This document shows, piece by piece, positions 7,888 to 43,481 of a stretch of DNA of 64,000 nt. The stretch lies in NCBI GenBank assembly GCA_951804945.1, contig OX638158.1:31620001-31684000 (forward strand), written 5' to 3'. Below the pieces are notes generated by a model that was not told the DNA's origin, did no database searches, and saw nothing but the letters and a program-made list of their open reading frames with translations. The position numbers and the translations under genes are program-made. Within the stretch, counting starts at the first letter, position 1; each line of letters begins with the position of its first letter. Origin of the DNA: Podarcis cretensis. Its lineage: Eukaryota.

Positions 7888-8169
7888 CAGGGGTTGCCAG
7901 TGTGATGCCCTTGGGCACCAGTTTGCCCTTCAGTATTTTCTGTAGCACCCATGAAAGGTCTTGGTAAATATCCCCTCCAAATTCCACAATGCATGAGAGA
8001 CTGTTCACTCAGTTCCTGTTTGCACTGGTGTGTCCTCTCCTATATGCCTCCATGGCAGCCATTTTGTCTTATGCCACACCTCCATAGCAGTCATTTTGTG
8101 ACTGCCGTCCACAACACTTTCACAAAATTCCAAACATGCCCACTGGCCCTCAAAAGTTGGTGACCCTTG
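7888..8169. mobile_element. hAT (Charlie-like) non-autonomous DNA transposon
   Basis: CAGGGG…CCCTTG termini with exact 8-bp TSD CTCTAGTG at 7880-7887 and 8170-8177. Confidence 0.8.
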
Positions 8170-15179: not shown

Positions 15180-15319
15180 ATTGATGGGTCAACTTTGAGG
15201 ACCATCTGCATGCAGCATGGTCCACTGCTGACATTCCATCTCAACCTGACCCAAGGCACCGCCCTTATCCGATACAGCACCAAGCAGGAGGCAGCCAAGG
15301 CCCAGACTGCACTGCACAT
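15180..15319 (+). CDS. TNRC6B: TNRC6B RRM exon ([23 protein letters not shown]…AQTALHM)
   Basis: caag acceptor, AT|gtgagt donor, 140 nt; GW182 RRM sequence. Confidence 0.96.
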
Positions 15320-17705: not shown

Positions 17706-18093
17706 GTGTGTTTTGGGAAACACTACCATCTTGGCTGAGTTTGCCACAGACGAGGAGGTTAGTCGCTTTCTGGCACAAGCTCAGCCTTCTACACCTGCAG
17801 CAACACCCAGCACACCTGCAGCAGGCTGGCAGTCTCTAGAGACAGGACAGAATCAGACAGATCCAGTGGGACCTGCTTTGAATCTTTTTGGTGGGTCAAC
17901 AGGGCTTGGGCAGTGGAGCAGCGGTGGTGGCAGCAGCAGTGGGGGTGACCTTGCTGGTGCTTCATTATGGGCCTCCCCAAATTACTCTTCAAGCTTGTGG
18001 GGGGTTCAGAGTGTAGAAGATCCCCACAGGATGGGAAGCCCTGCTCCCTTACTACCTGGAGACCTTCTAGGCGGAGGGTCGGATTCAATCTGA
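17706..18093 (+). CDS. TNRC6B: TNRC6B last coding exon ([13 protein letters not shown]…SSLWG…[10 protein letters not shown]), contains CIM2-type LW repeats
   Basis: tttag acceptor, TGA at 18091-18093; ORF 17674..18093. Confidence 0.96.
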
Positions 18094-18177
18094 ACTTAAA
18101 ACTTTCAACTCTGACCTCGTGACCTTTTTTGGAACAGCAGCAGCACTAACTTGACCTTTTCTTTTTTTTCAACTTGC

Positions 18178-18183
18178 AATAAA
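18178..18183 (+). terminator. Candidate proximal polyadenylation signal of TNRC6B
   Basis: AATAAA 85 nt after the stop; downstream context partly lost in an N gap. Confidence 0.4.
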
Positions 18184-18231
18184 TACATTTTAAAAGGAAA
18201 AAAGAAAATGGAGAGAGAAAAAAAAGGTGGG

Positions 18232-18395
18232 NNNNNNNNNNNNNNNNNNNNNNNNNNNNNNNNNNNNNNNNNNNNNNNNNNNNNNNNNNNNNNNNNNNNN
18301 NNNNNNNNNNNNNNNNNNNNNNNNNNNNNNNNNNNNNNNNNNNNNNNNNNNNNNNNNNNNNNNNNNNNNNNNNNNNNNNNNNNNNNNNNNNNNNN
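18232..18395. other. Assembly gap (164 N)
   Basis: Run of N. Confidence 1.
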
Positions 18396-19655
18396 AAACA
18401 CAAAAATTTAAAAAAATTAGTTTCTAGTTTTTCACTTTTTCATGTTATACGGAAGTTGTTGCTACGAAACATATATACTGAAAAATAGCTTTTTAACTTT
18501 GTTTGCACTGGGTGTGTTTCCGTCCTTAGGTCTACTATGTCGGGAAGGGGCAGGGTTCAAAAGAATTGGGGGTGGGGTGGGAGGGGAAGACTTGACGGAG
18601 CCTCACTTTAAAAAACAAAAAAAGGAAAAAAAACACTTTGTGATTGGCTGGTTGATATATACCAGTATGTTCTGGCACATGTAACTGCCCCGTGTGTGTG
18701 TTTCTGTGAGAGCGTGTATGTGAGCATGATTGTGTGTGCGTGTGTGCGCATTTTTGTCTTGGAAAGCTGCATTGCTGTTGGTCAGCAACCTACCTGGCTA
18801 GACTCTTAAACTGAATAATGATGGTGCCTATGACTGGTGCAAAATCAAATTGACCTGTGTTAAAATCTGTCGGTGGTATTTTTATTTTAGCAGGGTATTC
18901 AGCGCAGTACAGATCTTGTTCTGACCCTGTCATAGAGCAAAACACTGCCATATCCTAAGGATTTGGTGAGAGGGGTGCCAGTGTGGGAGTTCAGGGTTTT
19001 GATGGTGGGGGAGGGGGGTGATCTGTTTTGCCTAGAAGTGTATTTGTGTCTCTAATGAGACTTTTTGAGTGAACCCAAGCTTACTTTTTATGACAAGGCC
19101 TTTCACCTTTTGGGGGACACCAGGGGGTAATGGGCATCACATTTCTTTGTGACAAAGACCTATGTAATAGTTGAAGCTTCTGCAGTCCTTAAGAACCAAA
19201 TCCTGTAGCTATTCCTCAAGTCTGCATACTAAGGTTCTTATCCTTTCATGGAAAATCCACCAAAATTCAGGCCTAACTGTATTTTCTTAAGTGGTCTGCT
19301 GTTTGTGACAAAACTAAAATGTCAGTAGTTTGCTGGCCTATCTTGTATTGTGAAAGCACATGCAGCAACTTTTGTTCTCCTTTCTCCATAGTGAGCGTTA
19401 CCTGTGCCAGGCCTAGGTGTATTACAGCACCAGACCATCACTGACAGAAACGTTTACTTACGAATGTTCTTAAACCAGTGTGTACTTTGAGCATTTTTTC
19501 TCTGTGTATTTCCTGTGTATGTCTTGCTTAGGCTTTGCTTAGGCAGGCATATAACTAGCAAAGACTTCTTTTGTTTATAAAGTATTGCACCTTTATTATT
19601 TTTACTTTTCCCTGTACTGTTGCTTTTTATTGTCGGTATTTAAAGAAAGGTTGTA

Positions 19656-19689
<34 letters not shown>

Positions 19690-22600
19690 TTATTTTTTTA
19701 AACAACAGTGTAGTAGTACTCTGGGCAGGATAGGGGAGACCTATACTTAATTCAGAAGATAGCCAGTGTGTGCACTGGGACAGAATTGCTTGTTGTGAAG
19801 AAAGCCGTAGCAAACATTGCCTTTACACAAAGCAATTTTGAAGATGGGCAGACAGGATAAGAACAGGGAGAAGGAGGCATTATTCTTTGAAGTGTTAGAA
19901 CTTAGCTCTGGATTTTTGCTAGCTCTGCATTATACTGAATAACAAAAGTGCTGCAATATTCTGTACCAGCAAATACCTACATAACTCCGGTACTTGGAAG
20001 TAGCAGATCATAATGTACAGGATCACAACAGAAGATTCTTTCTCCTTCAGCAGTTTCATGTTTAAAAAAAAAATCAGTGGTGTCTGCTATATAAGTATTG
20101 ATAGCAAAATTAAAGCAAAAAAATTCCTCACATTTATGTAGAAAGGGAGGAGTTGTGAATTCTGTACATGAACTCGGTTTCACAGGAAGACTAAATAAGG
20201 CAATTACTGCATTTACATCTGCCTGTTATTTTGCTGTGAAGTTGAGTGGTAAACATAGACAGGTGTTGCGTATTTAACCTTCAGAATCTGCAGCATATGT
20301 GGATCTTTTAAGTGTTTCCCTATTTCTCCCTTTGTCATTGTATCTTGTAAGTTGAAGCAAAATGTCCCCCCCCCCATTCCTGCCACTTAAGTTTCCCTTG
20401 CAGCCCCTACACATGCCTGCTCCTAAAACAGCTGTATTTGTCTCTGGGGCCTCAGTGTTGAAAGCATGCAGGACAAACTATAATAAAAAAAAGCTCTGAG
20501 CTGGGAGGACATCGGAATACTGCACCTCATGGCCTAGAAAACAGCTATGTGCTCCAATATGTGACTTGACACACAAGCAGGTTCACTACTGTGTTATCAC
20601 TCTCTCCCAACCTGCCCTACGGTCCCTTTGCCTGCACTTTGGATTTGTTGAGTTCATTACGATACTACGGTGAAAGCCGGGTGCTAGAGCCCCTCTTGTT
20701 TACAAGACATAATGAGGGATATGACATATTTAAAAAATGAAAAGCTAAAATGTTCTTCCATCACAAGCTTAAAGGGAAAAAATTAAAAACTTTTTAAAAA
20801 AAGACCAAAAAGTGCGTGTGCATATATAAATATATATAAGATGAAGACTAACTCTGGGAGCATTTAACAGTGTTTTTGTGTTTTAACATTTATTTTCCTG
20901 CTTTAAATTTGCAAGCATTCTCAGGAATTCTAGGGTAGGAAGCCAGTTTTCGAAGATGGTTTATTTAACCTTTACCTTATCCTAGATAGATGGTTGTTTC
21001 TTTCGTAAACTTTTACAAGTTCCTGAATCTTTACAAAAAGCAAAAAATTTGAAAAACAAAATCTAACTAATACAAACTCCAATTGTCAGAACTGGGGATC
21101 AAAAAAATTTTAAAGTACAAATTGATTACAAAAGAATTCTCAGTAGCAGCAACACAAATTCATTGTATTCTTAAAAGTCCAAGTTGTGAAAAGATTTATA
21201 CTTTTAGAGCTTAGTCTCAAGTGGAAGCGCGTGTGCAGATGAGTGGGGGAGAGGATTGCATATGAATGAAAGTATAATCATCTAGTTGTTTCACAGTGAG
21301 CATAAAATCTTCCTCCAAGCACCATTTTAAAATAAACAGTTAAAAAAGAGTAAAAAAATGCATTTTGATTTGACTAAATCAGTCAACCACAGTTAAGAAG
21401 AATTGCTGGGAGTACAGGATGGTGCTTCTTGAAACCACTTTTAGATTGACAGTGCTTCAGAGAAGCAAAATCTTTATTGTGACCCAGTAATGGAGCTGTT
21501 TTAACTTTTACTAATTTTAAAACAGAAAATAGGGAAAGAAGAATGTGGAGAAATCAGTGAAGTGTACCTGGGAAAAATGGCTTGGTGTATTTTAATCATT
21601 TTGAAGATTTGTTTTTTTTTGTTTGCTTTTTCCATTTATCAACCAGAGATGTGTAAATGAGAAATTTTGGGAAGTGGGTTGGAGGTAAGATATATTAACT
21701 GCTGCTGCCAGCTACTGGGACTCCCATTCTTAAGAACCAGTTTACTGCAGCTTTTTCCTGGGATGGATAGCTCAGAGCTTCCAGCACAAAGAGAGAAGGA
21801 CTTAATGTGCTTGAAGCATTTTTGTTAGAATGAAAATAACAAGCCGCTTTAGTGCCTTTGTAATGCATCCTTGCATCCTACAAAAGACATATGCAGTCTA
21901 GTCACTCCAAGGAAACAAATGAACCCATTTTTCTAAAACAAAAAGCATTTCTCTTGAGCATGCTGAATAGAAGCCTCAAAGGCCTGCCGTGCAAAGAGTT
22001 ACATATAAAATAACATACATGTAAACATTTTTCTTTGAAATCTAAGGGCAATTTTCATGCATTACTACTTTCTTGTTTTGAACTACTCTTCAGATAGAAG
22101 TGTGAAGTAATGCTTGGTTTTCTGTGACATCAGTTGTGTGTTCTTTAGTTGTGTGTTGCGTTGTTTCCCAAATTGCACCTTGGAAAAAATGCATCAACTG
22201 ATTCCTAGTGTGATAGGCCAGTGAGAGGAGCCCCCTTTTGTTTTTTTAAAGGAAGTTATTTATCTGAATGCTTTATCAGAGGCTTTGACTTATTTCCCCC
22301 TATAATATTTTTTTAAGTGGAAAATTACAAAAGCCTGTTACTTGGCTGACAACTGCTGAAGAAGGTAGAAAGGTAAATGTATAACTGTCATATTTAAAGC
22401 ATCCTTTACCTCTCAACATTTCAACCTATGCATATTGAAGTTTGTCATATTTTTGAAGAAGTGAACTAAAATATCAATCTTGGCAACCTTCCATCCCTGA
22501 TGAATACCTGGAATGTTTAATCAGCCCTTTGGACCATAGCAATACAGGTTTCCAAACACCTTTTCTGTTTTGAATCTGCTATGTTCTCTGGCCAGTGAGG

Positions 22601-25600
22601 ATGATACTTTGGGGAACTAAGCACTAAACTATACTTGAGAAAATGTTTTCTGCAGTTGTTTTGTGGGTGGTGTTACTATATTTTCATGTACGTTCTACAC
22701 ACACACACAAAAAGGCAAGAGGTCTCATGGGGTGTTGGAGACCTCTTCAGATTGCCAGAGCACCCTGCGCAGCTTGCAGCCACGTGTCAAATTTTTCGTT
22801 TTATAAAGTTGCTCCTTCCATGAAAAGGAGAAACAGTCCATATCAATGTTTTGTCCTCCTTTTTAGTTGTATATTTTAAATGCACATGCCCAACTTAAAA
22901 AATAGCCCTATTTTGGTTCTATTTACTCTTTTAATATATGGCCTATATGAACCTACTGCCAGAACCAGCATCTAATTGGATGGGTCTTGCAATAACACCT
23001 TTCCTATAATAGTACTATTCCCAGAAAGCTGCTTATTATGACATGCCGAACCATTCTGAGAAGGTTGCAGTCTTTTCCAGTGCACCCGTATAAAGGGGAT
23101 AGAGTGAGCTTTTCCTTCACTCTTGGGTTCCCTTTGTAAAGGAATATGTTAAAAGCATGTTTTCCCTCTGCCACTTAGCCAAAGCAAAACTCTTCACCTT
23201 ATCTTTGAAAATTTTAAAAATAAATTACTGAATATAAATAAACAGACATTTCCTGTTTGATTTTCAATGCAGGCATTTGAATTGGCAAGTGTAACAAGTA
23301 TTAACACCTCTTTCTATTCTGTCCTCCACTGCCATGGCAAATGTTACCCGATCTTCACTGTCATCCAAATAGTAGTGTTCAAATCACTCACCTTTATTTT
23401 TTTATAGTATTGGCTAACTGAGATACTCTGTTCTCCCCTGAGAAGGTTCTGTTTAGTTTAGCTGTATTGTTCCTTCATTATAAATATGCAACAGCAAAAA
23501 CACTCTCCATATAATACAAATGCTACCCAAAATGCAGTTAAAATGATGCATTCTGAAATGAATACATGCTTTCCAAGGCATGCATTGATTGGAGCGATAC
23601 TGACTGAAGGAAGATGGATAAAATCTATATTACTGGTTTCCTTAATTTTCCACAAAGCTACAGCTGTTCATTTGAATGCTGATTAGTCTCCGTGTTATGA
23701 TATGCTAATGATATTGGGAGCATTATGTAGATGGATGATTTGGTAGTAACAGTTACACCTGTTGAATACAAGGCTTAATCAGCAAAGATGTAATGTTGTT
23801 TATTCTTTATTCCAATAATATTTTGCAGATTTTCCTACTGTTGCAATCCCTCTCAAAGGTTTAAAACTTTGCTGATTTTTAAAAAGTATATATTGACTCT
23901 GATCCATACAATTTGGTCATACAGTTGTTGATCTGTTATGAATTAGTAAATTTCTAAGAAAATTCTGTAGTGCTCTTAAGGATGGGTGAAAGGAGTAAAA
24001 CAAATTTTGTGCTGAAGATAGCTTTTATCCTCCTTCAGAACATTGCTAAAATGTATACAAACAGTCGCCAAATTAAAAGGATTATTCACCTCTTATGCTA
24101 CAATAGGGAACAAAATTCTAACCTGATCTTCTGGCTGTCAGGCCTCATCAGATGCTAGCAGTTGTCAGACCAACCTAAGTGCCCTTAACTGTTCTCCATG
24201 GCCATGTCAGATACAGATAAGCAGTTTCACATGGCTAAGAGGATATTTAACAGGCACCATAGACGTTACCAAATGTGTGATATGGAACAGTGTCAACATA
24301 CCTGCTTCTTAAGTTTGTGCAGTATGGCATATTTTTACAAATTTCTCAGAGACATGGGCCATAGAAGGATCAAAAGAATCAACCTCAACTAAGAGCCAGT
24401 TTCTTCATGTACTTGGCAGTGGTGATAGCTAGAGTTATATACCCTTGTCTTTTTTTAAAATGCATTTTTTTTAGCCATAGAGTTTTAATGTGTTTTTACT
24501 TGAGCCTGACAACCATCCATTTTAACACAAATCCAGGTTATTGAAGTTAAAGCATTGTGCCAGGCAGCCTGTGAGTATATTTTGACATATGATTAGCTGT
24601 TCATGGAGCAAAATAAAATAAGAATGGAGAAATGTTCCATGGGTAAACAACACAGTTGGACAGTGTCAAGCAAGAAGTGGTGTGTTTTTTTAAGCGCTTA
24701 GTGCCTCATCTTAGGTAATAGTATGCCAGTTAATGCATTCAAAGAACTAAAGTTCCTCATTTCTTACCATGTTTTAATCAGAGAAAATAAATGCATATTG
24801 TCTTTCTGTATTAGAAAATGCAGCGGTTAATTGAGTCCTCCTTATAAAGATTGCTTTGCTTGCTGGATAATAATTTTTGTGGCATGGTTGTGAATATCAA
24901 GTGCTTTTCTTCTCCTTACTTATCCCAGCCAGACTGGCTCACCCTCCTTTTATATTAAGTGCTGAGTGCTTTGAAGTTTGGGTGGGAAGGGGCAGGGAAT
25001 AAAGGAAATAAAGGGAGCCAAGTTAGAGCAGCCTTACTTTAGGGAGTAGCCTTACAACAGAGCTTTATAGTGAGGGTGTGCTGTATTCCAAATTGTGTAA
25101 GCCAAAAATGAAAAAAAAAAATCATTTATGCAAAAAGAGGCGTTAACTTCTTAACATAATATGTACCTTCTGAAGGTAGAATAGGGTCTCATGAAGTAAT
25201 ACATTGTGATGCTTCTTGCTGGGTCAGTAGGTATGGGATTTGGGATATAAGCGCTTAACATTCCCTTGTGGGGTTTTTTAGGGTTGTGTTTTGTTTTTAG
25301 TTTTGAACAAGCAGTAAGTTAAATGTGGTATCTCTGAATGTGCCTTTGTGAGTATGTGACTGTCAGTCCGAGAAGACTACTTGGGCTTGACAGGGGGAGA
25401 TGATAGTCAGTTTATTCTCTCTAAAGGTCAAATGCAAAGATTCCAGCCTGCTGGTACCTTTTGACAAACAGTGTCTTTTGGGGCTGGTCTCTAAGCTGCG
25501 CAGTATGCAGTTGTGTGTGGCAGATGCATCCAGGTGTGGATGGGTTGTAATTCACATGTTGACATTTTTAGGCTAGTGCTCCGTTGCTGGTTGAATTCGT

Positions 25601-27499
25601 ATATGTATTACGTACCTATTACATTTGTGTATGTGGCTTGCTTTAACTTTTTTTTTTTTAAAGCACTGGAAAATGAAACGCAGTGATGTTTGAGACACAT
25701 TTATGCATGTAGAGAAGAAGGTATTTTGTAGTTTCTGCCATTCTTGGGTGTAGGCACACTTTTGCCCTCTATCAGTGTCCTGATAATAGAAGAAAAAAAA
25801 TCTACCCTATAACTTCTAGCACACTTATTGTTGCCATTTAAATGAACAGGGTATTACACAAGAAAATAAGATGTTTTTGAAATGGTGAGGAAGAAGTGTT
25901 GTTTTTTAATCAAAAAGTAATTCTTTGTTTCTTTGAAGCTGTTTGTAGCTAAACATGGGAATCTGCAGTGTCTACTTTCATTTGTTTTTTTCATATATAT
26001 TCCACCTCTTCTTCTCCCCACCTCAAATGCAAGGTGTACAAAATCAAGAGCTGCTGTAGCACCTCTCAGCAACCTTCCCAAATGAAAGCTCTAGCAGGCT
26101 CTCTTCATCTCCATTCAGGAAGACAAAGGGAGGAGAGATGCTGCAGCTTTCTTGCTTCGCTCTCATTCCTCTCTAATGGCCTTGAAATGTATTATTATGC
26201 AAATGTGAATTTTGATACTGAACTTTAAGAAGAGGTTGTTTCTTTTTCAAACAAAAAAAAAGGTCCCATATGTGGTCAGCATTGCTTCTTTTTCTTGTAA
26301 GTGAATTGTAAACTATGCATTCAGCAAGAGATGGTTTGGGGGAGGAAAAGAGAGTCCTGCGAAACTGTTGAAAATGTTTCTGTGTCCATTGAATTCCAAC
26401 ACTGATGTAGGAGGAAAGAGGTTCATGTCATGGGAGGACTTAATGGAACCCATCTCGTCAGAGAAGTTGACTTATTTGATTGCCAGGCAGATTTGTTTTT
26501 GGAGGAAATTAAAATCAACTTCAGAAATGAAGTAAGGTCTGCCTGTTTCACAGGACTGTGCTTTCTTGCCATGCAGTGTTAGACCAGGATCAGCAGCATG
26601 ACACAAAACAGCCCAAGGAGAGAATTTATCTACATAGCACCTCCTCCATTTGTTCAACCTCAGGAAATGGCACCTCATGCACTGTCTTTAAGGATTTACT
26701 CTACAACTTGTTCTCCTTTACAACTGCCCTTGTTCCTCAGGAGAATTACAATGTGGCTTTTCCTTGCATGCATTTCCAAAACTCTGTCCTAAAAGTTTCT
26801 ACCAATTCCCATCGCAGATGAAACATAAAATAGCAATGCCAGCTTGGAACTGCTGTAGAATATATACTGCACTGGCATTAGTCAATTCCTTGTCTTCTAA
26901 TGTTCATCAGAACTTTTCAAGGAAGACGGCATGCTAGTCACCATCTGTGACTTCTTTGAGCTAATACTACCACTAATAAAATGGAGGCGAGTGATAGAGA
27001 CTAGAAGAGGAAATTTATATGGATGCTTTTGCTGGCAAGAAGCTGCTTTGAAAGGAGAAAGATTTCACTTCCTTACTTTCCGAATGTAGAGGCTGCTTCC
27101 CATGTTAATGGAGGTGTGTTTCCTTTACAAGTCTCCCTTGGGTGTTGTGAACTGTGGTATCTGCCTCATTTCACCTTGGCATCACCATAGCCAAGAAATT
27201 CTCCTACCTATAATTCAGTGTTTTTTTTTCTCACACAGCAATTTTTTGTTGGTGTTCACAGTACTGTAATGAATAATAAATAGCCTTGACCGCTCATTCT
27301 CACATGCATACTTGCCTTGCAGATCTGATCTTATCAGGATTCTTATCTGGTAGATTGCCTTTTGTTGTTGTTATTTGTTGAAGGGGAAAAGTTTCCAGCT
27401 CTTTGTCTCAAAATACCTCGTGGCACATATTTACCTTTAGTGTAACTGGCCTTGTATATTCTCTTTCATACTTAGTGAGATTATACTGTTCCTACATTT

Positions 27500-27735
27500 G
27501 TCCTAGTGGTTTGAAGACTGGATCATGAGGCTGAAACTCCTGAGTTCTAATCCTGGCCTTTACTCTTCCCTCTTTTTGCCTTAGGCAAGAGTCATTTAAC
27601 CTTTGCCTCAGTTTCCCCATCTGTAAAATGGGGATAATAATACTTACCTACCTCACAGGGGTTTTGTGAGGATTGACTACAGGTTTTTGTGAAGTGCTTC
27701 AAAGAAAAAGTACTTTTTCTAAGTATTATTATATG
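27500..27735 (+). mobile_element. Ancient CORE-SINE (MIR-like) in the TNRC6B 3'UTR
   Basis: B-box-like GAGTTCTAATCC and CORE CCTCAGTTTCCCCATCTGTAAAATGGGGATAATAATACTTACCTACCTCACAGGG…TGTGAGG. Confidence 0.88.
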
Positions 27736-29788
27736 GAGGTGTAACTAGCAGGCTACCTCCTTTCCCAGTCTTAGACGTACATCTCAGGGATGTGCAAAGA
27801 GGAAATAGGAGAGGAAACAGTGTATTTTATTTTTTACTTGTTAAGCCATCAAATACTTTAAACTACTTTTAACAAGAAGGAAGGAGCTAAAGAGCTAAAC
27901 TATTCACAAATCTCCCTCGAGTTCCACATATAGCATAGAGAAAAGCCAGTCTTTTAACAGACACATTTTAAAAATAAAGTACACTTCCTCTTGAATTGGA
28001 ATATGTAAAGTTTGCCATCTTTTGTATGTCCCCCTTTTAATTAGACATGGACTTTTTTGTTAGATTAACAATGGCAGCACATCTGCTGCATTTGGGAAAG
28101 GAGACATTGCTGTGTAGTTTATATGAGTTCTGTAAAATGACAATGTTTGTCAAGTAGTTGGCTTAAAGATGGGGACACTATCCAAACTTGCTTTCCTGTT
28201 TGTGTGTTAAACATATACTGCCTCATTCCCAATATACACAAGCCATTGTATGCCAATAAAACATGGAAACACAGTAATGTTCATTAATAAGAGCTGCTTG
28301 TGAATATGCCTTACAGCCTTCTCAAAATCTTTGGGAGGAGGGGTGGAATAAGAGGTTGGGGTAAATTCCATAGGGAGTCTTTGCTACTTCCTCCCTTTTC
28401 TGATCTATTATGGACAACATTCTCTCTTCAATCTTAGACGTGCATCTCAGGGATGTGCATATTGAGCCCAGCATTCGGATCTTGGAAAACCTAAGATTTG
28501 GTTCCATTCTATATTTGAAGTCTCCATATTGGACACTCCCTTAATCCTTTTCATCATTTACTCCCCAAGGAGCAGCTCTGTCCACAACTGTTAGGTGATT
28601 AAAAGTTCTACGGTGATCAAATTCAACATGATGCAGGTGTATTTGTATCTGTATCTCTGTTTGTTTTTGTGTGTGTGTGTGTGTGTGTAGATACATGCAT
28701 ACATATACGAATGCTCACTCAAGATTCCACCTTCCACTAGTTGGGGCAAGAAAACTGAAGTGCAGATCACCTAACAAAAACAAACAGCAGCTTTGCTCTG
28801 CTAATACATATGCACTGCTTTCTTTAAAACAAACCTTTTTTTTTTTTTTTGAGGGAGGGATGAAAAAAGCAGTGGAGTTTAGAACTACTTTAGCATCCAC
28901 TGGTTAGACAGAGACTTGAAATGCTGCTTTAATTTCAGAGCTCCTATGGGGCTATGTTTACAAAGAACTGATCAGGAAAATGACCAATTGTGGATATTCA
29001 ACTTAGTGAATTATGCTTCATTTCTGGTGAGCAAGCCATGTAGTGGAAAATGTCTTAACGGAAAATGAAAGAAGTTTAACTCCACCTAGCCTTATTTGTG
29101 AAGTAAACAATATTTTATGTCCAAAACATCTTGATTAGAAAAGGCAGCTTTTCTACTTTGCACATAAATAGGTAATACGAAGGTACAGCTGAAATGCTAT
29201 TGCCTGAAACACTGTCCCTTCCCCCAAGCAGGCATAATAGTGGATACATGTATTGAGGCTCTTTGCAAAGATACCTATTAGTATTTTTTCCTTATACTTG
29301 AAATAACGTACCCATCTCTATTTGTCAGTTGGGCATCCAAGAAGGGTGGAATAGTGGAAAATAGGAAAAGGCACAATATGTTTTCATGCTAGAGTTTGCT
29401 TAGTTCTCTCCCCTCCCCCATAGTGCTTTTATTTCAGCTTACTTTCTATCCTAGGAATTCACATGGACACAGAAACACAGCACTTTATGTGCTCTTGCAT
29501 GGCATGCTGCCCTCCCCTTCTCCCTCTCTTCTCTATTTTTATTTTAGTATAGTGGTACTTAAAATCACTGTTTCACTTAAAAAGACAATAAAATGTTTAA
29601 ACTCTACTAATGTACAAATAAGCTGAAATGTTGCATTTATGTGTATTTTGCCATAGCAGGTACTGTATTTCTCATGCTGGATTTCAAACCAACAAAAGGG
29701 TGATGTTTTATTGGAGTGTGACAAGTTGAGAGTAATAAGGAATTAAGTCGTCGTCATTTCATTGAAATTGAGAGATGGTGTAATACAT

Positions 29789-29992
29789 NNNNNNNNNNNN
29801 NNNNNNNNNNNNNNNNNNNNNNNNNNNNNNNNNNNNNNNNNNNNNNNNNNNNNNNNNNNNNNNNNNNNNNNNNNNNNNNNNNNNNNNNNNNNNNNNNNNN
29901 NNNNNNNNNNNNNNNNNNNNNNNNNNNNNNNNNNNNNNNNNNNNNNNNNNNNNNNNNNNNNNNNNNNNNNNNNNNNNNNNNNNNNNNNNNNN
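29789..29992. other. Assembly gap (204 N)
   Basis: Run of N. Confidence 1.
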
Positions 29993-30109
29993 TGTCAATT
30001 TATTTTTGTTTGTTGATTTGGTCTATAAAATGCAGTTGTTAACTATAATTTATTGGCTGTGCATTTTCCCTTCAGGAATTCATACTCACTATTTACACAG
30101 TCTTGCAGC

Positions 30110-30115
30110 AATAAA
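30110..30115 (+). terminator. Candidate distal polyadenylation signal of TNRC6B
   Basis: AATAAA followed by U-rich sequence at the end of the repeat-poor block. Confidence 0.65.
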
Positions 30116-31374
30116 TTGATAGTTGATTATTTTTATCTTTAGTATCTCCTCAGTCGTGTAAATAATTGTGCACACACATTTTTCCTAGGTTTGGAGGCAG
30201 CTATTTTTATTGAGAAATGGCATCTTGGCTTATCACAATAGCACATTGTTATTCTGGTATCAGAGAAATTCAAGGGTTCTAGAATCTGATTGAGCTTTAC
30301 TAGATACCAAGGAAACCAGACAGATGGACAGTTTTCAAACCTACTTGTCAACTCTCAGATATCTGTACAGGCTGGGCAAACTACAAGCATTATTTAGCAG
30401 GAAGATGTGAATCCCCTTAATATCTTTCTTTGTTCTATATTGGAGAGGAGAGCTCAAATCCATACTGGAATCGAAATGAACTGGGAATTCAGCAACGCCC
30501 AAAATAACTTACATTAGCTATGTGAGAGCTCCCAAGGTGGCTAGGCAAGCCGCTTCTCCCACTGTCCATGCGACCCACGCTGAATATATTATTCTTGATG
30601 GTACATTATAGTATATTCAGGGTATCATATGGGTTATCATCTCCCTGGTTCTTCAACACAATACACATTGAACATGACAATGGTTGCTTCTTCTAACAAA
30701 ATTATAAAAGGGTTGCATTTCGAAACACTGCTCAAAGCAAGCTATTATTCACCACTGAGGGAAAGCATGCAAAGCTAGTGTGATGTAGTTGCTAGAGTCT
30801 AATATAAACCTGCACTCTGATGTGACACTCATTAGGTACTCCTGAGCAAGTCAGACCTGTGACAGCAAAAATTGTTGCTTTAATCTCCTTGGAGAAACAA
30901 AAGGTTACAAATCTTATATGACCTTGTTATGTCAACAACAGATTCATCATAAGTGGTGTCAGTTGTCAAGGAATGGCCACATCATGAACAGCACACTTTC
31001 ATAGCCCTGGAAACAAAATTACCTAAGATTCAAAATTATAGATACTGTACTGAACTTGCTGAATCCTTGAAAATAACTGGCTTATAAAATCATGGGAATC
31101 AAAAGTGCAACAGATTTGCAAAGAGACTGTTACACAATAATTCTTTTCCTGCGTCAAACAAAGGTCTGACTTGTCTGGATTTGGTTTCCAGCAGTGACCA
31201 ACCAGCTGCTTCTGGAAGCTTCCAAGCAAAGCAGGTGATGGGTCATAGTTTGTATCTTGTACTCAGAAGTGTAGTGTGTCCACTTACAGACACTTTCTGT
31301 ATAGCTGTAATGGCAAATAACTGATTTGACCTACACACAAATTGTCTCATTCTGCTTTTAAGCCATCTGAGCTA

Positions 31375-31720
31375 GTAAAGGACCCCTGACACTTAAGTCC
31401 AGCCGCGGATAACTCTGGGGTTGTGGAGCTCATCTCGCGTTACTGGCCAAGAGACTCGATGTTTGTCCACAGACAGTTTTTCTGGGTCATGTCGCCAGCA
31501 TGACTAAGCCGCTTCTGGCGAAACCAGAGCAGCTCATGGAAATGGCGTTTACCTTCCCACTGGAATGGTACCCATTTATCTAATTGCACTTTGACGTGCT
31601 TTTGAACTGCTAGGTTGACAGGAGCTGGGACTGAGCTTACCCTGTGGGGATTCAAACCGTCGACCTTCCGATCAGCAAGCCCTAGGCTCAGTGGTTTAGA
31701 CCACAATGCCACCTGCGTCC
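31375..31720 (-). mobile_element. Sauria SINE inserted in an older CR1-like fragment
   Basis: Minus-strand start GGGACGCAGGTGGCATTGTGGTCTAAACCACTGAG; ~14-bp TSD CATCT(G/A)AGCTAGTA on both sides. Confidence 0.9.
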
Positions 31721-32449
31721 CATCTAAGCTAGTAGTCCTCTCCATAACTTATGGCAGTGAATTCCACAAGTTTATTTTGCTATGTGAAGTACTTCCTTTG
31801 GCCTTCTGTGAATTTAATGCAAATCTGTTCCTGTAGAGGAATGTCCAAGTTCTACTGTAACAACATTTATGTTATCAGTCCATCCACATTACATATGTTA
31901 ATAAACATATGCAAAGGCAGCTCATACAGATACTACTTAAAATCTAATCTCTTGGGCCTTTTCTTACATGGAAGATTCTCTTATCTCTTGCTGATTTTAG
32001 CTACCCCCTTATAAATTATTATTTGCAAATGTGACAAGGAAAGGAAAAAAAGATAAAAGCAAACAAGGTAAATTAAAGTTGAAGAAAGAAGAGGAAAAAG
32101 TATACAAATAATACTAATATCAACGGTAGATCACCATTGGTACACAAATCTTAAACATGCAAGTTAATACATACGGTAAGTGCTCCAGATAGCCACACAA
32201 AGTTGGGGCAGTGAGATCTTAAGACCATTTTGTAACAGACCCATGTCTAATTCTCCCAACTCCACCATAAACTGGGGCAAGCAATATTCGAAGCAGGGCC
32301 ACACCATACTTTAAAATGGAACTGCCAGGCGTTCCCTAACACGGAATATGCCTCCCCTAACCCCACTGCAACAATGGAAGCTATTTTCAGTAAGAATTTT
32401 GCCGAGACCCCTCAAAACTTCTTCGGGAGTTGCTGCCAATAGGGACAAT

Positions 32450-33120
32450 AGTATACGTGGGGAGTTAACTCTTGAGGGGAGCTAGGGCTGCAGTGCAGCC
32501 TCCCAAGCAGCAGGGGCCGCTGCGACCCCGACCTTGCCCCAGTCCAGTCGCAGGCGAACCGGAAGGGGGCCGGGGCGCCGGAGGTGAGGTTGAGTTGGGG
32601 GCGGGCCTGAGGGCGGGACCTCTCCGCTCCCTTTATTACGGTCCTGGGGCTGCTGCCTCCCTTTCGCCTGCGGGTTGCAGCTGCTTCTCAAGAGGGTGTC
32701 GCTTCCCTGCGCGGGACCTTCTCCACGATGGCCGAGGAGGATCCTTTCTGCCGCTACCGCTCCCCTCTCGTCTCGCGCTACGCCAGCCCCGACATGGCTT
32801 TTAACTTCAGCGAGAGGAAGAAGTTCAGCACCTGGCGGCGCCTCTGGCTTTACTTGGCCAAGGCTGAGAAGGTGGGCGCGCGGGGGTTCGTGGCTGTGCA
32901 AGACCAGCTCATTCAGTGGAAAGGCCCCTGTCCACCCCCACCCCCCAATGCAATGGGGGTTGTGGCATTTGCACTTTTACTGACCCTGCGCCACACACAC
33001 ACGCACAGAGCTAACAGACCTCCTGCGCAACAGGTGAAGGGGCAACATGCCTGTTCTGTTTGACGCCACTGTTTGCATACCTACATGTCCTTTATGCTTC
33101 TCTGTGTGCGCGCACATCTG
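32450..33120 (+). promoter_or_regulatory. ADSL: ADSL CpG-island promoter with GC boxes and an ETS/GABP-like CCGGAAG (32559-32565)
   Basis: Sharp rise in GC and CpG around exon 1; GGGGCGGG and GAGGCGGG near 32600. Confidence 0.85.
32728..32871 (+). CDS. ADSL: Adenylosuccinate lyase exon 1 ([20 protein letters not shown]…AKAEK)
   Basis: YRSPLxSRYAS motif; AAG|gtgggc donor. Confidence 0.96.
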
Positions 33121-33217
33121 CCCAGTTTTGTTAATAATGCACTAGAACTGGAGTCGCCCACTGAAGCTGAATGGTAGGCAGCCAAAATTAATCCCCACCC
33201 CCTGCCCCTACTCAGTA

Positions 33218-33432
33218 CAGTGGTACCTCGGGTTACAGACGTTTCAGGTTACAGACTCTGCTAACCCAGAAATAGTACCTCGGGTTAAGAACTTTGCTTC
33301 AGGATGAGAACAGAAATCGGGCAGCGGCAGCGGGAGGCCCCATTAGCTAAAGTGGTACCTCAGGTTAAGAACAGTTTCACGTTAAGAACAGACCTCCAGA
33401 ACGAATTAAGTTCTTAACCTGAAGTACCACTG
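33218..33432 (+). mobile_element. Tc1/mariner-pogo MITE family A, copy 1 (ADSL intron 1)
   Basis: TA-CAGTGGTACCTC…GTACCACTG-TA; strand is an arbitrary reference. Confidence 0.9.
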
Positions 33433-34171
33433 TACTTAGTTAAACTAGGGAATTTGTTGCCACAAGAAGGTAGTGATAGCTGCCACTTTAGGCGGCTTTA
33501 AAAGGGGGTTTTACCCATTGGTGAGGGTTATGGCTCTCTGTGTATTCAGGTGATATTGGATGTCTTATGACCTGAAGGATCCGATCGGATATAGCACAGC
33601 TTCGAATATTGATCCCTGGGAAACAAGAGCAAATGTGTTGTTATGCTCGCATCTTGTTTGTAGGCATCCCAAAGACATCGGGTTGGCTTCTCCAAATTGT
33701 CGTGTTTTGTTAATAACGCTTTATGTAAGTTTTTGATACTGTTGCACAGTTGTAAGGCTATATTGTGCTTAGCAGCAATGGTTGCTCAGAAACAAAATAA
33801 AAGGAGCATCACCACTTAGAACTGTGATCAAGCAGTATACAAATTGCAGAAGTAAAATCGTTGCACTCGACTTCTAAATTTAATATTTTTTTTTTACTTT
33901 TGTGCAACACTGTAATGTGGGTACTTATGTCTAGTAAATGTGCTGTGGTTCTTCATTTCTCATCAGATTCTAGGATCCTATTTACCTGGAAAAGGTATTT
34001 GGCTGAGAATTCCAATATAACTTTTTCATAGGCATCTGCTCATATTGCAAGTGTCCATTGTTGCATCAGGATCCTTATGCAGAGTTACATTTTTGCTATT
34101 CTCATCTGATTACAACAGTATGACAATGGACATTTGCTAAAATGGTTTCTAGAAACGTACTCAGAAGCATA

Positions 34172-34396
34172 CAGTGGTACCTCAGGTTACATACGCTTCA
34201 GGTTACAGACTCTGCTAACCCAGAAATAGTGCTTCAGGTTAAGAACTTTGCTTCAGGATGAGAACAGAAATTGTGCTCCAGCGGCGCAGCAGCAGCAGGA
34301 GGCCCCATTAGCTAAAGTGGTCTTCAGGTTAAGAACAGTTTCAGGTTAAGAACGGGCTTCCGGAACGAATTAAGTACTTAACCTGAGGTACCACTG
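34172..34396 (+). mobile_element. MITE family A, copy 2 (ADSL intron 1)
   Basis: Same TIRs and interior as copy 1. Confidence 0.9.
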
Positions 34397-35639
34397 TACT
34401 GTCTCTGATCATGGAGGCAGAACATATTCATTGAGTTTAGTAGCCATTGATAGCCTTTACCTCTATGAATTTGTCTAATCCTCTTTTTAAAGCCACCCAA
34501 AGACTCTTCTCTTCTGATTACCATGCTCGAGGTCACTGCAGAGGTGGTATGTTGTAAGTGCATGCATTTCAATGTAATTTATCAGTCACCAAGGGGATGG
34601 AAGCAATATTCCGAACATGTTAGTTGCACAAACCTCTGTACGTCACTCTAAACCATACAGAAGATACAAGGTTGTTTGCTTAGCCGTAGGTAACATTTCA
34701 TATGCCCCATCAGCCCAGAGGGGATTGACCCTGACTATCAAGCAATAGCACTTTATCTCATGTGTATTATACCTCACAAAGTGATTTTGTCAATCAAGAA
34801 TAAACAAAGTGGATTTTAGCTTCTGATCCAAATGTTAAACTATTACAACTCTTAGTGGGATTCACTTACCCTCAAAAAAAATCTTTAAATGGTACCATGT
34901 GGTCCTTAAAGTATCCTGGATCCAAGTTTTTCGGAACTTTCTAGATATTTTTTAAATTTTTTGTTTATTTCTGACAACCCAAAAGTATTAGTAGCAGGGT
35001 GCTAGATTGTACCATAAAGAAACAAACAAAGAAAAAGAAATTGTAACACACCAGTATACATTGAGGCATCCATGTTTCCCAGGCTAGCATGGGTGGTGAC
35101 TATTGCATGTACGTTCAAAGCATAAGAAATAAAATCCTGCCAAATGATGTAGAAGTGTTATGGGTTCTCCCATTACTCTAGAGACACACAATAACCAAAA
35201 GTCCATAAGTTCTTATACCACAAAGACCAGTGTAGATTTTTTCTAAGCTCTCCATAGCTAGATTATTGAAATAGTAGCAGCAGCTAGGATCCATGTCAAA
35301 AATTCTTTAGTGTGACAAGGTTTCCTATTATCAGTCTGAAAATTCAGTAGTGACAGTTGTGGATAAGCCTGAGCAGATGATTTAATTATTTAAAGTATTT
35401 CTTTATAAACTTGGGATCAGAATTATGAGAGCAGAGGGCATTCCCACCAAAGATAAAAAAATATTCCCCGGAGCCCACAGGCCTGCCAGCAATCCTGTAT
35501 TGATTGCGGTATAATTATGAGACATCTGCACAGGTGTACTATTCCATCTATGCACAACTTTTAGCATTCCTTCACAAATAGTGGAACAGATTTGTGAGGC
35601 TTAGCTGACCACAGTGATTTCCATTCAAATTCCTCTTTT

Positions 35640-37671: not shown

Positions 37672-37722
37672 GTAAAACAACGTTATGAAATTGTTCTCCA
37701 TAAGCTGGGCTGAATCACTATA

Positions 37723-37955
37723 CAGTGGTACCTCGAGTTACAAACACCTCAGGTTACAAACGCTTCAGGTTACAAACTCCGCTAAGCTGGAAGAGTTACC
37801 TCAAGTTGAGAACTTTGCCCCAGGATGAGAATGGAAATTGTGTGCCGGCGGCAGCAAGAGGCCCCATTAGCAAAAGCACACCTCTAGTTAAGAACAGTTT
37901 CAGGTTAAGAACGGACCTCTGGAATGAATTAAGTTCGTAACTAGAGGTACCACTG
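37723..37955 (+). mobile_element. MITE family A, copy 3 (ADSL intron 2), more diverged
   Basis: Same TIRs and interior. Confidence 0.88.
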
Positions 37956-38377
37956 TAATAGTTCTTTTCTATCCCTGCTTTACTATCTGAAATACCAAGC
38001 TTGTAAAGTATCAGCAATATTTTTTTCTTTATTAAAAAGACGAAGATAAGTATTGTATAGCTAAAAATTCAAAACCCAGTAAAGTTCTGAGTGAGATAAC
38101 ACACACACACCCCATTCTCTCGTCTCTTCATTTTCACCCTCTTGGGTGGTATAGAAGTAATGCTGATCCCTTTGAGGCACAAGTGAATTTGAGAGTGACC
38201 AAAATAAATGCTTGTGCACAGTAGATTACTTGATTCTTTGATACACAAAGAGAATGTTAGTCATACCCATTTGTCTTTATGGAAATTGCAAATTACCCTG
38301 AAAGGAGAGTGTAGATAAGCACATGATTATTGAATAGAATTGTGACTGACTGACTATTTTATTCCTTTTTCTGTTAG

Positions 38378-38528: not shown

Positions 38529-39346
38529 CCGTATTTTTCGCCCTATAGGACGCACCGGCCCATAGGACACACCTAGTTTTTTGGGGGGGAAATCAAGGAA
38601 AAACATTTTATTTCCCCCCCAGATTTGCACAGCCATCCCCAAGCTAGAAGAGGGAGACGGAGCGCTCCGTCTCCCTGTTCTGCCTTCAGGGACAGCCTTT
38701 CTAGCCTCCGTGGGGCAGCGGCTTGCCCCGCTGTCCCCCAAGCTTGTGGGGCTGGCGATGGGGAGAAGCAAGCTTGCTTCTCCCCCCCCCCCCCCCGCCA
38801 GCCTCCAGACCAGGTCCGGGAATAGCGGGGTGGTGGCGCTTCGCCTCCCCGCTATCCCCCGAGCTTGTGGGGCTGGCAGGGGGGGGGAGAAAGCAAGCTT
38901 GCTTCTCCCCCCCCCCCCCCCGCTAGCCTCCAGATCAGGTCCAGGAATAGTGGGGTGGCGGCGCTCCGCCTCCCCACTATCCCCCAAGCTTGTGGGGCTG
39001 GCGATGGGGAGAAGCAAGCTTGCTTCTCCCCCACCCCCACCCCGCCAGCCTCCAGACCAGGTCAGGGAATAGCGGGGTGGCGGTGCTGCGCCTCCCCACT
39101 GTCCCCTGAGCTTGTGGGCTGCAGGCTGCTGCCCACAAGCCTTGCGAGCCCGCGGGACCTCCCGCCGGGCTTGCAAGGCTTGCTGATAGCTTCCTGAAGC
39201 CTGGAGAGCAAGAGGGGTCGGTGGGCACTGACCCCTCTTGCTCTCCAGGCTTCAGCGAAAGCCTGCATTCGCCCCATAGGACGCACACACATTTCCCCTT
39301 CAATTTTGGAGGGGAAAAAGTGCGTCCTATAGGGCAAAAAATACGG
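38529..39346. mobile_element. Tigger/pogo-like non-autonomous transposon with internal GC-rich ~120-bp tandem repeats
   Basis: TA-flanked TIRs CCGTATTTTT(C)GCCCTATAGGACGCAC at both ends; about three internal units. Confidence 0.85.
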
Positions 39347-42286: not shown

Positions 42287-42341
42287 TAATCTCTTTTTCT
42301 CCCCAGTGGTTAGTAATCTCTTTTTTCTCCCCAGTGGTTAG
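42287..42341 (+). repeat. 27/28-bp tandem duplication TAATCTCTTTTT(T)CTCCCCAGTGGTTAG
   Basis: Two adjacent copies read directly. Confidence 0.92.
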
Positions 42342-42427
42342 TAAAATGAACCAGCTCCAAGATTTCTGATGGATATTAATGCTGCCCAGAAATAGTGTCT
42401 GAACTAATTAGAGTTGTTTTTCTCCAG

Positions 42428-43062: not shown

Positions 43063-43259
43063 CAGTGGTCCCTCCACTAACCCAAAAATAGTACCTCGGG
43101 TTAAGAACTTTGCTTCAGGATGAGAACAGAAATCGCACGGCGGCAGCACGGTGGCAGCGGGAAGCCCCATTAGCTAAAGTGGTGCCTCAGGTTAAGAACA
43201 GTTTCAGGTTAAGAACGGACCTCTGGAACGAATTAAGTTCTTAACCCGAGGTACCACTG
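43063..43259 (+). mobile_element. MITE family A, copy 4 (ADSL intron 8)
   Basis: Same TIRs, internal deletion near the 5' end. Confidence 0.9.
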
Positions 43260-43481
43260 TACTAAGGTCTTTTCAACCCCTTACTGACTTTTCTTTTGTT
43301 TTCAATACAGCTTTTTAAAAAAATGTGATTAATTTATGTAATATATGGTATAATTGATATAATTTTCACCACTGGTTACTTTCAGTCTCCATAGTGATTC
43401 TATCTAGTTGGACTGTGCTTTATTGCTTAATTTTTGCCTTGCTCTTGGTACTATTTTGTATCACTTTAATAAAAATCCAAA

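Follow-up and report, generated by a model that had tools for sequence, protein, structure and literature searches.

A near-identical 28-nt pair with a predicted hairpin in the putative TNRC6B 3′ UTR of Podarcis cretensis: selected RNA element or local copy

TNRC6B, one of the core effectors of microRNA silencing, has been tied to a neurodevelopmental disorder, as described in the accessible part of PMC13115724. Its putative long 3′ untranslated region (UTR) in Podarcis cretensis contains nearly the same 28-nt sequence twice, each time predicted to fold into a hairpin. The question raised by this locus is whether the pair is a repeated RNA element kept by selection or a copy left by a local duplication. 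The window referred to below is the whole stretch of DNA analysed, namely 64,000 nucleotides of contig OX638158.1 (positions 31,620,001 to 31,684,000, assembly GCA_951804945.1), and positions are counted from its first letter unless another locus is named.

The two copies and their setting

The features of the window that define the setting are as follows.

15180..15317, + strand: TNRC6-family RRM exon (GW182 RRM match, E 2.5e-15)
17707..18093, + strand: last coding exon of TNRC6B, with the stop codon at 18091-18093
18094..29700, + strand: putative long 3′ UTR, about 11.6 kb, with AATAAA at 29587
27576..27679, no strand assigned: old dispersed repeat fragment (23 other places, 76-95% over 37-90 nt)
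27769..27796, + strand: copy 1 of the 28-nt element, the likely donor (predicted hairpin 27777-27795, CAG triloop 27785-27787)
28432..28459, + strand: copy 2 of the 28-nt element, the likely inserted copy (predicted hairpin 28440-28458)
32728..32871, + strand: adenylosuccinate lyase (ADSL), the neighbouring gene downstream, first coding exon

The initial annotation had placed both copies in the 3′ UTR of TNRC6B, and this placement, about 10 kb past the stop codon, was upheld, with the extent of the UTR being putative and the human clusters matched by eye. The RRM exon has two paralogs in the genome, and the name TNRC6B is based in part on what we take to be synteny with ADSL. Human TNRC6B 3′ UTR clusters (PMC4510711, supplement 5) match the window colinearly by eye, including CID_009934, with 31/31 letters of the binding cluster at 20841-20871, and CID_009952 at 29461-29476, so the gene is named TNRC6B and both copies lie upstream of a stretch matching the human 3′ UTR. 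Many of the 22 human clusters, chiefly those of the distal UTR, have no clear match by eye, which indicates that conservation of the UTR is patchy. The old repeat fragment, presumably MIR/CORE-SINE-like, ends about 90 nt upstream of copy 1, and the element lies outside it; the region 27576-27720 appears well preserved in the UTR, with an 18-nt perfect palindrome (27703-27720) at its end. Polyadenylation-type hexamers are present at 27973, 28255, 28598 and 29587, with the AATAAA at 27973 and 28255 falling between the copies, and alternative 3′ ends could take in one or both copies.

A direct check on the + strand confirmed that the copies are 27/28 identical and 663 nt apart, the sole difference being an A in copy 1 (27779) and a G in copy 2 (28442) at element position 11. 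Past the hairpin stem a further 8 nt, the leader, are identical. A comparable pair was found in 0/100 shuffles of the window, while at least one exact 17-mer direct pair occurred in 2.3% of 300 order-3 Markov simulations of the UTR. When the whole genome (1.51 Gb) was searched with up to 2 mismatches allowed, as had been proposed in the initial annotation, the element was found in exactly 2 places, with no third copy. Searching with the 22-nt core at 2 mismatches added one place on C7, dissimilar beyond the core, which is estimated to be a chance match, about one such being expected. The element is thus not a high-copy repeat, and no dispersed copies indicating a transposon were found in the genome DNA search, from which old diverged copies may escape. 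The flanks proved as unrelated as had been claimed, both by anchored extension, which scored only 2 and 0 (P 0.15 and 1.0 from 1,099 random UTR pairs), and by comparison of 300-nt flanks (P 0.81 and 0.63).

No wider family of the element was detected. With the stems left free, the 8-nt leader combined with the UCAGG loop has 10 matches in the genome, of which only the two copies pair, the 7-bp stem being present by eye in 0/8 of the others. Downstream of the RRM exons of the two paralogs, over 30 kb each (60 kb), there is no match better than 18/28 and no UCAGG hairpin of at least 5 bp, and Rfam gave four weak matches in 18000-34000, all under the gathering score and none on the element. The 24-nt pattern of the element had 0 matches in metagenome contigs, a collection that gave no positive control; a 20-nt pattern from the UTR end had five matches there, which are due to chance, as none extends beyond 21 nt. 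Viral contigs gave 0 matches. No publication describing the element was found in a literature search that had most subscription papers and several supplements outside its reach. Neither TNRC6B nor the motif appears in the supplements of PMC11310781, PMC8728028 and PMC6116022, or in those of PMC3467077 and PMC6581050 (all but one file each). TNRC6 is unnamed in the main text of the bioRxiv preprint 10.64898/2026.10.24.761493, whose supplements could list the structure, and the table of PMC6294493 contains, among the entries listed, one TNRC6B hairpin, unrelated to the element.

The predicted hairpin and known RNA elements

Each copy had been described as a 7-bp stem with a UCAGG pentaloop; the stem is predicted for both copies, but the fold model prefers a CAG triloop to the pentaloop. 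The hairpin takes up element positions 9-27, with predicted energies of -9 (copy 1) and -8 kcal/mol (copy 2) and z values of -2.95 and -1.56, respectively. The seven main pairs are predicted at probabilities of 0.95 or more when the context is 100 or 200 nt, and the eighth pair (U.G), which closes the CAG triloop, has a probability of 0.81 versus 0.19 for the UCAGG pentaloop. Such stability is matched by 1.7% of 1,627 UTR 28-mers, 4.1% of 3,180 GC-matched 28-mers and 4.6% of 6,000 genome samples.

Outside the hairpin the copies are predicted to have no common structure. Copy 1 is surrounded by the following feature, absent around copy 2.

27753..27816, + strand: imperfect pyrimidine/purine inverted repeat with copy 1 inside it (P(E<=) 0.06 relative to random flanks)

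This repeat lengthens the predicted stem of copy 1 (z -2.2 over 91 nt), while the surroundings of copy 2 (z +1.4) offer only weak alternatives. A common basal stem was rejected, as the registers differ between the copies and neither stem is significant (P 0.20 and 0.32). Three other candidates were rejected by inspection: a pre-miRNA, for which the stem is too short and broken; a splice acceptor, with a pyrimidine tract and AG before both copies and no good donor after them; and a microRNA site, the 7-nt match to a microRNA seed within the stem being expected by chance.

In iron-responsive elements (IREs) a bulged C lies below an upper stem of 5 bp that ends in a CAGWGH loop, and the several hairpin copies found in the long 3′ UTRs of MAT2A and of TFRC, the latter being IREs, are deeply conserved. 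These hairpins keep their loops and vary their stems, unlike the TNRC6B copies, where the stems are invariant and the loop is not that of an IRE. An IRE was rejected, since neither the loop nor the stem register fits and there is no Rfam match. The remark of the initial annotation that the loop differs from the constitutive decay element (CDE) bound by Roquin is too firm: the CAG triloop fits the relaxed YRN form, although only that form. The predicted 8-bp stem and CAG loop (probability 0.81) agree with the Roquin rule of a 6-8-bp stem and a YRN triloop, and such a hairpin occurring twice in one 3′ UTR resembles the tandem CDEs of UCP3 (Braun et al. 2018; PMC6294493, accessible part). The differences are the U.G pair closing the loop in place of a Watson-Crick one, with one or two further wobbles (two to three wobble pairs in the stem overall), and a loop ending in G and not in U, so that the high-affinity YRU form is absent. 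Only two YRN hairpins in the UTR are formed by Watson-Crick pairs alone, neither copy being among them, and with G.U allowed there are 17 YRN hairpins of 6-8 bp, which makes the fit a cheap one. Roquin reads shape, according to the available parts of the sources, and shape would not account for why stem and 8-nt leader are identical in both copies. The element core is present in 0/22 human Roquin-1 clusters, which cover about 5% of that UTR and are hence uninformative.

The Smaug recognition element (SRE) has a CNGGN0-4 loop, which is 4-8 nt long and starts with CNGG, as given in the accessible part of PMC4053848, and the letters CAGG are likewise found at the tip of the hairpin. This candidate was rejected, as the N0, N1 and N3 registers have probabilities of at most 2.6e-5 and N2 cannot close (U opposite U).

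Short local pairs in the genome and a repair-type origin

The background of such pairs was estimated from 140 loci of 10 kb from 12 contigs and the window, scanned for 25-100-nt near-exact local pairs with unrelated flanks. Nine pairs passed the filter, the TNRC6B pair included. Left out of the count were three pairs in L084/L085, two shown to be multi-copy in a cluster and the third as belonging to the same cluster, and two pairs in L035 adjoining repeats. Three genome-unique pairs of 28-36 nt, with 0-1 mismatch and 140-540 nt apart, served as controls.

36 nt, direct, 540 nt apart, genome-unique
28 nt, inverted, 140 nt apart, genome-unique
34 nt (51 nt in another comparison), inverted, 422 nt apart, genome-unique

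One of the three is on the same strand, and none (0/3) attains -8 kcal/mol. The corresponding rate is 2.1 per Mb (95% CI 0.44-6.3) in the 1.4-Mb sample, or about 3,200 pairs per genome, with 0.14 expected per 64-kb window and 0.025 per 11.6-kb UTR. A looser scan gave eight within-locus pairs (the TNRC6B pair included; two from one site), 7/8 of them spaced 140-663 nt, and 0 pairs in 138 between-locus controls. The presence of such pairs elsewhere indicates that a process making pairs of this size and spacing is active in the genome.

Given these observations, we lean towards reading the TNRC6B pair as a short repair-type local duplication ("doublet"), probably a recent one. The pair occurs in two places only, with sharp edges, on the same strand, with one transition and at a spacing typical of the other pairs in the genome, all of which speaks for a repair copy. 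Against it stand a sense-strand hairpin in the top 2-5% of 28-mers, which none of the controls equals, the low expectation of 0.025 pairs for one UTR of this length, and a second such pair in the same UTR. Taking all 3′ UTRs together, same-strand pairs that carry a hairpin are roughly estimated at 0.3-0.8 per genome for an assumed UTR total, so that for a scan of the whole genome the neutral reading is plausible, though not overwhelming.

According to the accessible part of Pace et al. 2009 (PMC2671141), proximal repair-mediated duplications are present in all the vertebrate genomes surveyed, 66% of them within 3 kb, with 2 acceptors and 11 donors of 824 located in 3′ UTRs. The term "doublets" is that of Thomas et al. 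2004, as cited there. Copies counted as such duplications in Pace et al. are non-tandem, >50 bp and <5 kb apart. The TNRC6B pair agrees with this class in being restricted to two places, non-tandem and devoid of related flanks, and it resembles the duplications of Pace et al. as far as these are described there, with two near-exact copies less than 3 kb apart and possibly a short microhomology at a junction. It differs from their proximal class, with its median of 147 bp, in the 28-nt length of the copies, and from their cases in lying outside a transposon, which leaves the donor and acceptor roles putative; the copied piece, too, is unlike theirs in being a predicted hairpin in a 3′ UTR.

In such an event an end that had broken or stalled where copy 2 now lies would have primed on the copy-1 site via 1-3 matching bases (CA and, after one mismatch, T), been extended by 28 copied nt and been rejoined. 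The 28 nt copied would by chance have held a small inverted repeat, and the A/G difference would go back to a single neutral transition after the copying. The two matching bases at the left edge of the junction are within chance (P 0.15), and neither a polyA tail nor a target-site duplication was seen at the copies. Copy 1 is taken as the probable donor and copy 2 as the acceptor because deletion of copy 2 leaves a clean palindromic site.

28428..28465, no strand assigned: flanks of copy 2, which form a perfect 10-bp palindrome when joined without the element

A 10-bp palindrome lies within 1 nt at 48/11,280 UTR sites, this feature having been noticed after the fact. The palindrome would represent the pre-insertion site; it may also be read as a weak RNA basal stem, for which the flanks of copy 2 have a pair probability of 0.07-0.30. 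The control pairs have no palindromic empty sites (arms 0-3 bp), so the palindrome is not a general mark of the process.

The signs of selection proposed in the initial annotation do not support the step to a selected RNA-protein element. The A/G difference does preserve pairing, which is a weak argument for selection, since most transitions do the same: every pair is kept by 22/28 transitions in copy 1 and 23/28 in copy 2 (10-11/16 within the stem). It is a one-sided change and not covariation, and there is no compensatory change between the copies. Each copy does contain one CpG, as do 1,769/11,387 (15.5%) of the UTR 28-mers, which makes this argument weak as well, and the two copies count as one observation if the pair is a young duplicate. 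The divergence of the copies is 3.6% (1 difference in 28; 95% CI 0.1-18%), and at 20% divergence at most one difference in 28 has a probability of 0.015. With near-total identity, selection would need to act on nearly every letter. If the duplication reading is true, the pair is only one of thousands of minor scars left by copying in this genome, and its main value is as a caution that near-identity of two hairpins with a single wobble-preserving change does not amount to evidence of selection.

The enclosing inverted pair and alternative readings

Both 28-nt copies are enclosed by a second, inverted pair.

26375..26397, + strand: 5′ arm of the inverted 23/24 pair (predicted duplex -35.8 kcal/mol)
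29454..29477, + strand: 3′ arm of the inverted 23/24 pair (16-nt core 29461-29476 in a human TNRC6B 3′ UTR cluster)

The pair is genome-unique, has one bulge, and its arms lie 3.06 kb apart; it would have arisen as an inverted copy made by repair, or else it would be a long-range RNA duplex that has been conserved. Two pairs in the TNRC6B UTR (11.7 kb) versus 15 in 1.38 Mb correspond to an expectation of 0.13 (P 0.007), an excess that could reflect a copying hot spot or a selected RNA structure, and the inverted pair is arguably the better lead in this UTR. A weaker inverted pair, 25461-25479 and 28135-28153 (17/19, -22.9 kcal/mol with flanks), is likely due to chance.

Both 28-nt copies may instead be old and selected as a tandem RNA element, with a protein reading the 8-nt leader and the hairpin (CAG or UCAGG) and tuning the stability or translation of the TNRC6B mRNA, perhaps within the 3-kb domain closed by the 23-bp inverted pair. 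This is unlikely, as is its fuller form, in which the mRNA would carry an undescribed selected tandem element within a 3-kb domain closed by a conserved 23-bp duplex, setting GW182 dosage. The sense-strand position of an unusually stable predicted hairpin is consistent with it, as are the weak basal pairing possible around both copies with different letters, the genome-unique enclosing pair with a 3′ core matching the human UTR, the 22 Roquin-1 PAR-CLIP clusters of human TNRC6B mRNA (PMC4510711, supplement 5) and the cooperation of tandem hairpins in known cases such as the UCP3 CDEs (PMC6294493, accessible part). The lack of covariation points the other way, together with near-total identity, which is more typical of a recent copy, basal stems out of register between the copies, no genome family or Rfam match, disagreement with the SRE and strict CDE rules, and the absence of the core from the human clusters, given their small coverage of that UTR. 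Were it true, the tandem element would offer a new handle on the setting of TNRC6B level and would illustrate how copies made by repair can give rise to regulatory sites in RNA.

It is also doubtful that copy 1 is an older functional hairpin, for instance a weak Roquin-type one with a longer imperfect stem, and copy 2 a recent repair duplicate that may add a second site. The longer predicted stem is indeed that of copy 1, the surroundings of copy 2 do not fold, and the clean empty site belongs to copy 2; in addition, 82/824 donors contain conserved elements in the accessible part of Pace et al. (PMC2671141), and the CAG loop fits YRN, with wobble closing pairs being partly active in UCP3 mutants as far as described in PMC6294493. 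This is countered by the number of YRN hairpins in the same UTR and by the enrichment of YRU loops only in the Roquin binding selections reported in the available part of PMC11609897. Finally, it is highly improbable that the element acts as DNA, the two copies being sites for one transcription factor within an enhancer close to the promoter of ADSL and the hairpin being incidental. The copies do lie 4-5 kb upstream of the ADSL start and contain a CpG and a small inverted repeat, and repair duplications can copy binding sites (PMC2671141, accessible part), but no complete motif of a familiar factor was recognised, the match over 28 nt exceeds what a factor reads, and the CpG content is unremarkable.

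Further observations concern short repeats in the genome. An inverted 34-nt pair, genome-unique, 32/34 identical and 480 nt apart, follows the stop codon of a TNRC6 paralog at a distance of 10 kb (L162:7446-7479 and 7926-7959; G000:C2:37248146-37248659), and both its differences are readable as G.U on one strand, which illustrates how easily changes look pairing-preserving. At L145:5833-6408 (G000:C13:20095833-20096408) a direct 36-nt pair 540 nt apart is accompanied by a partial copy nearby, so the site is complex and resembles a templated insertion. A cluster at G000:C5:20.08-20.47 Mb, probably a tandem gene family, repeats a 26-nt word in both orientations at intervals of about 5-15 kb, with at least 28 copies that are nearly identical. 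The window itself contains a direct pair at 38726-38756 and 38847-38877 (29/31, 121 nt apart), a 23-nt near-tandem duplication at 42294-42344, and several copies of a short element, its terminal inverted repeats being TACAGTGG, at 33216-33436, 34169-34400, 37720-37957 and 43077-43263. The latter, which we take to be a Tc1/mariner-type MITE, explains the weak mir-322 match in Rfam.
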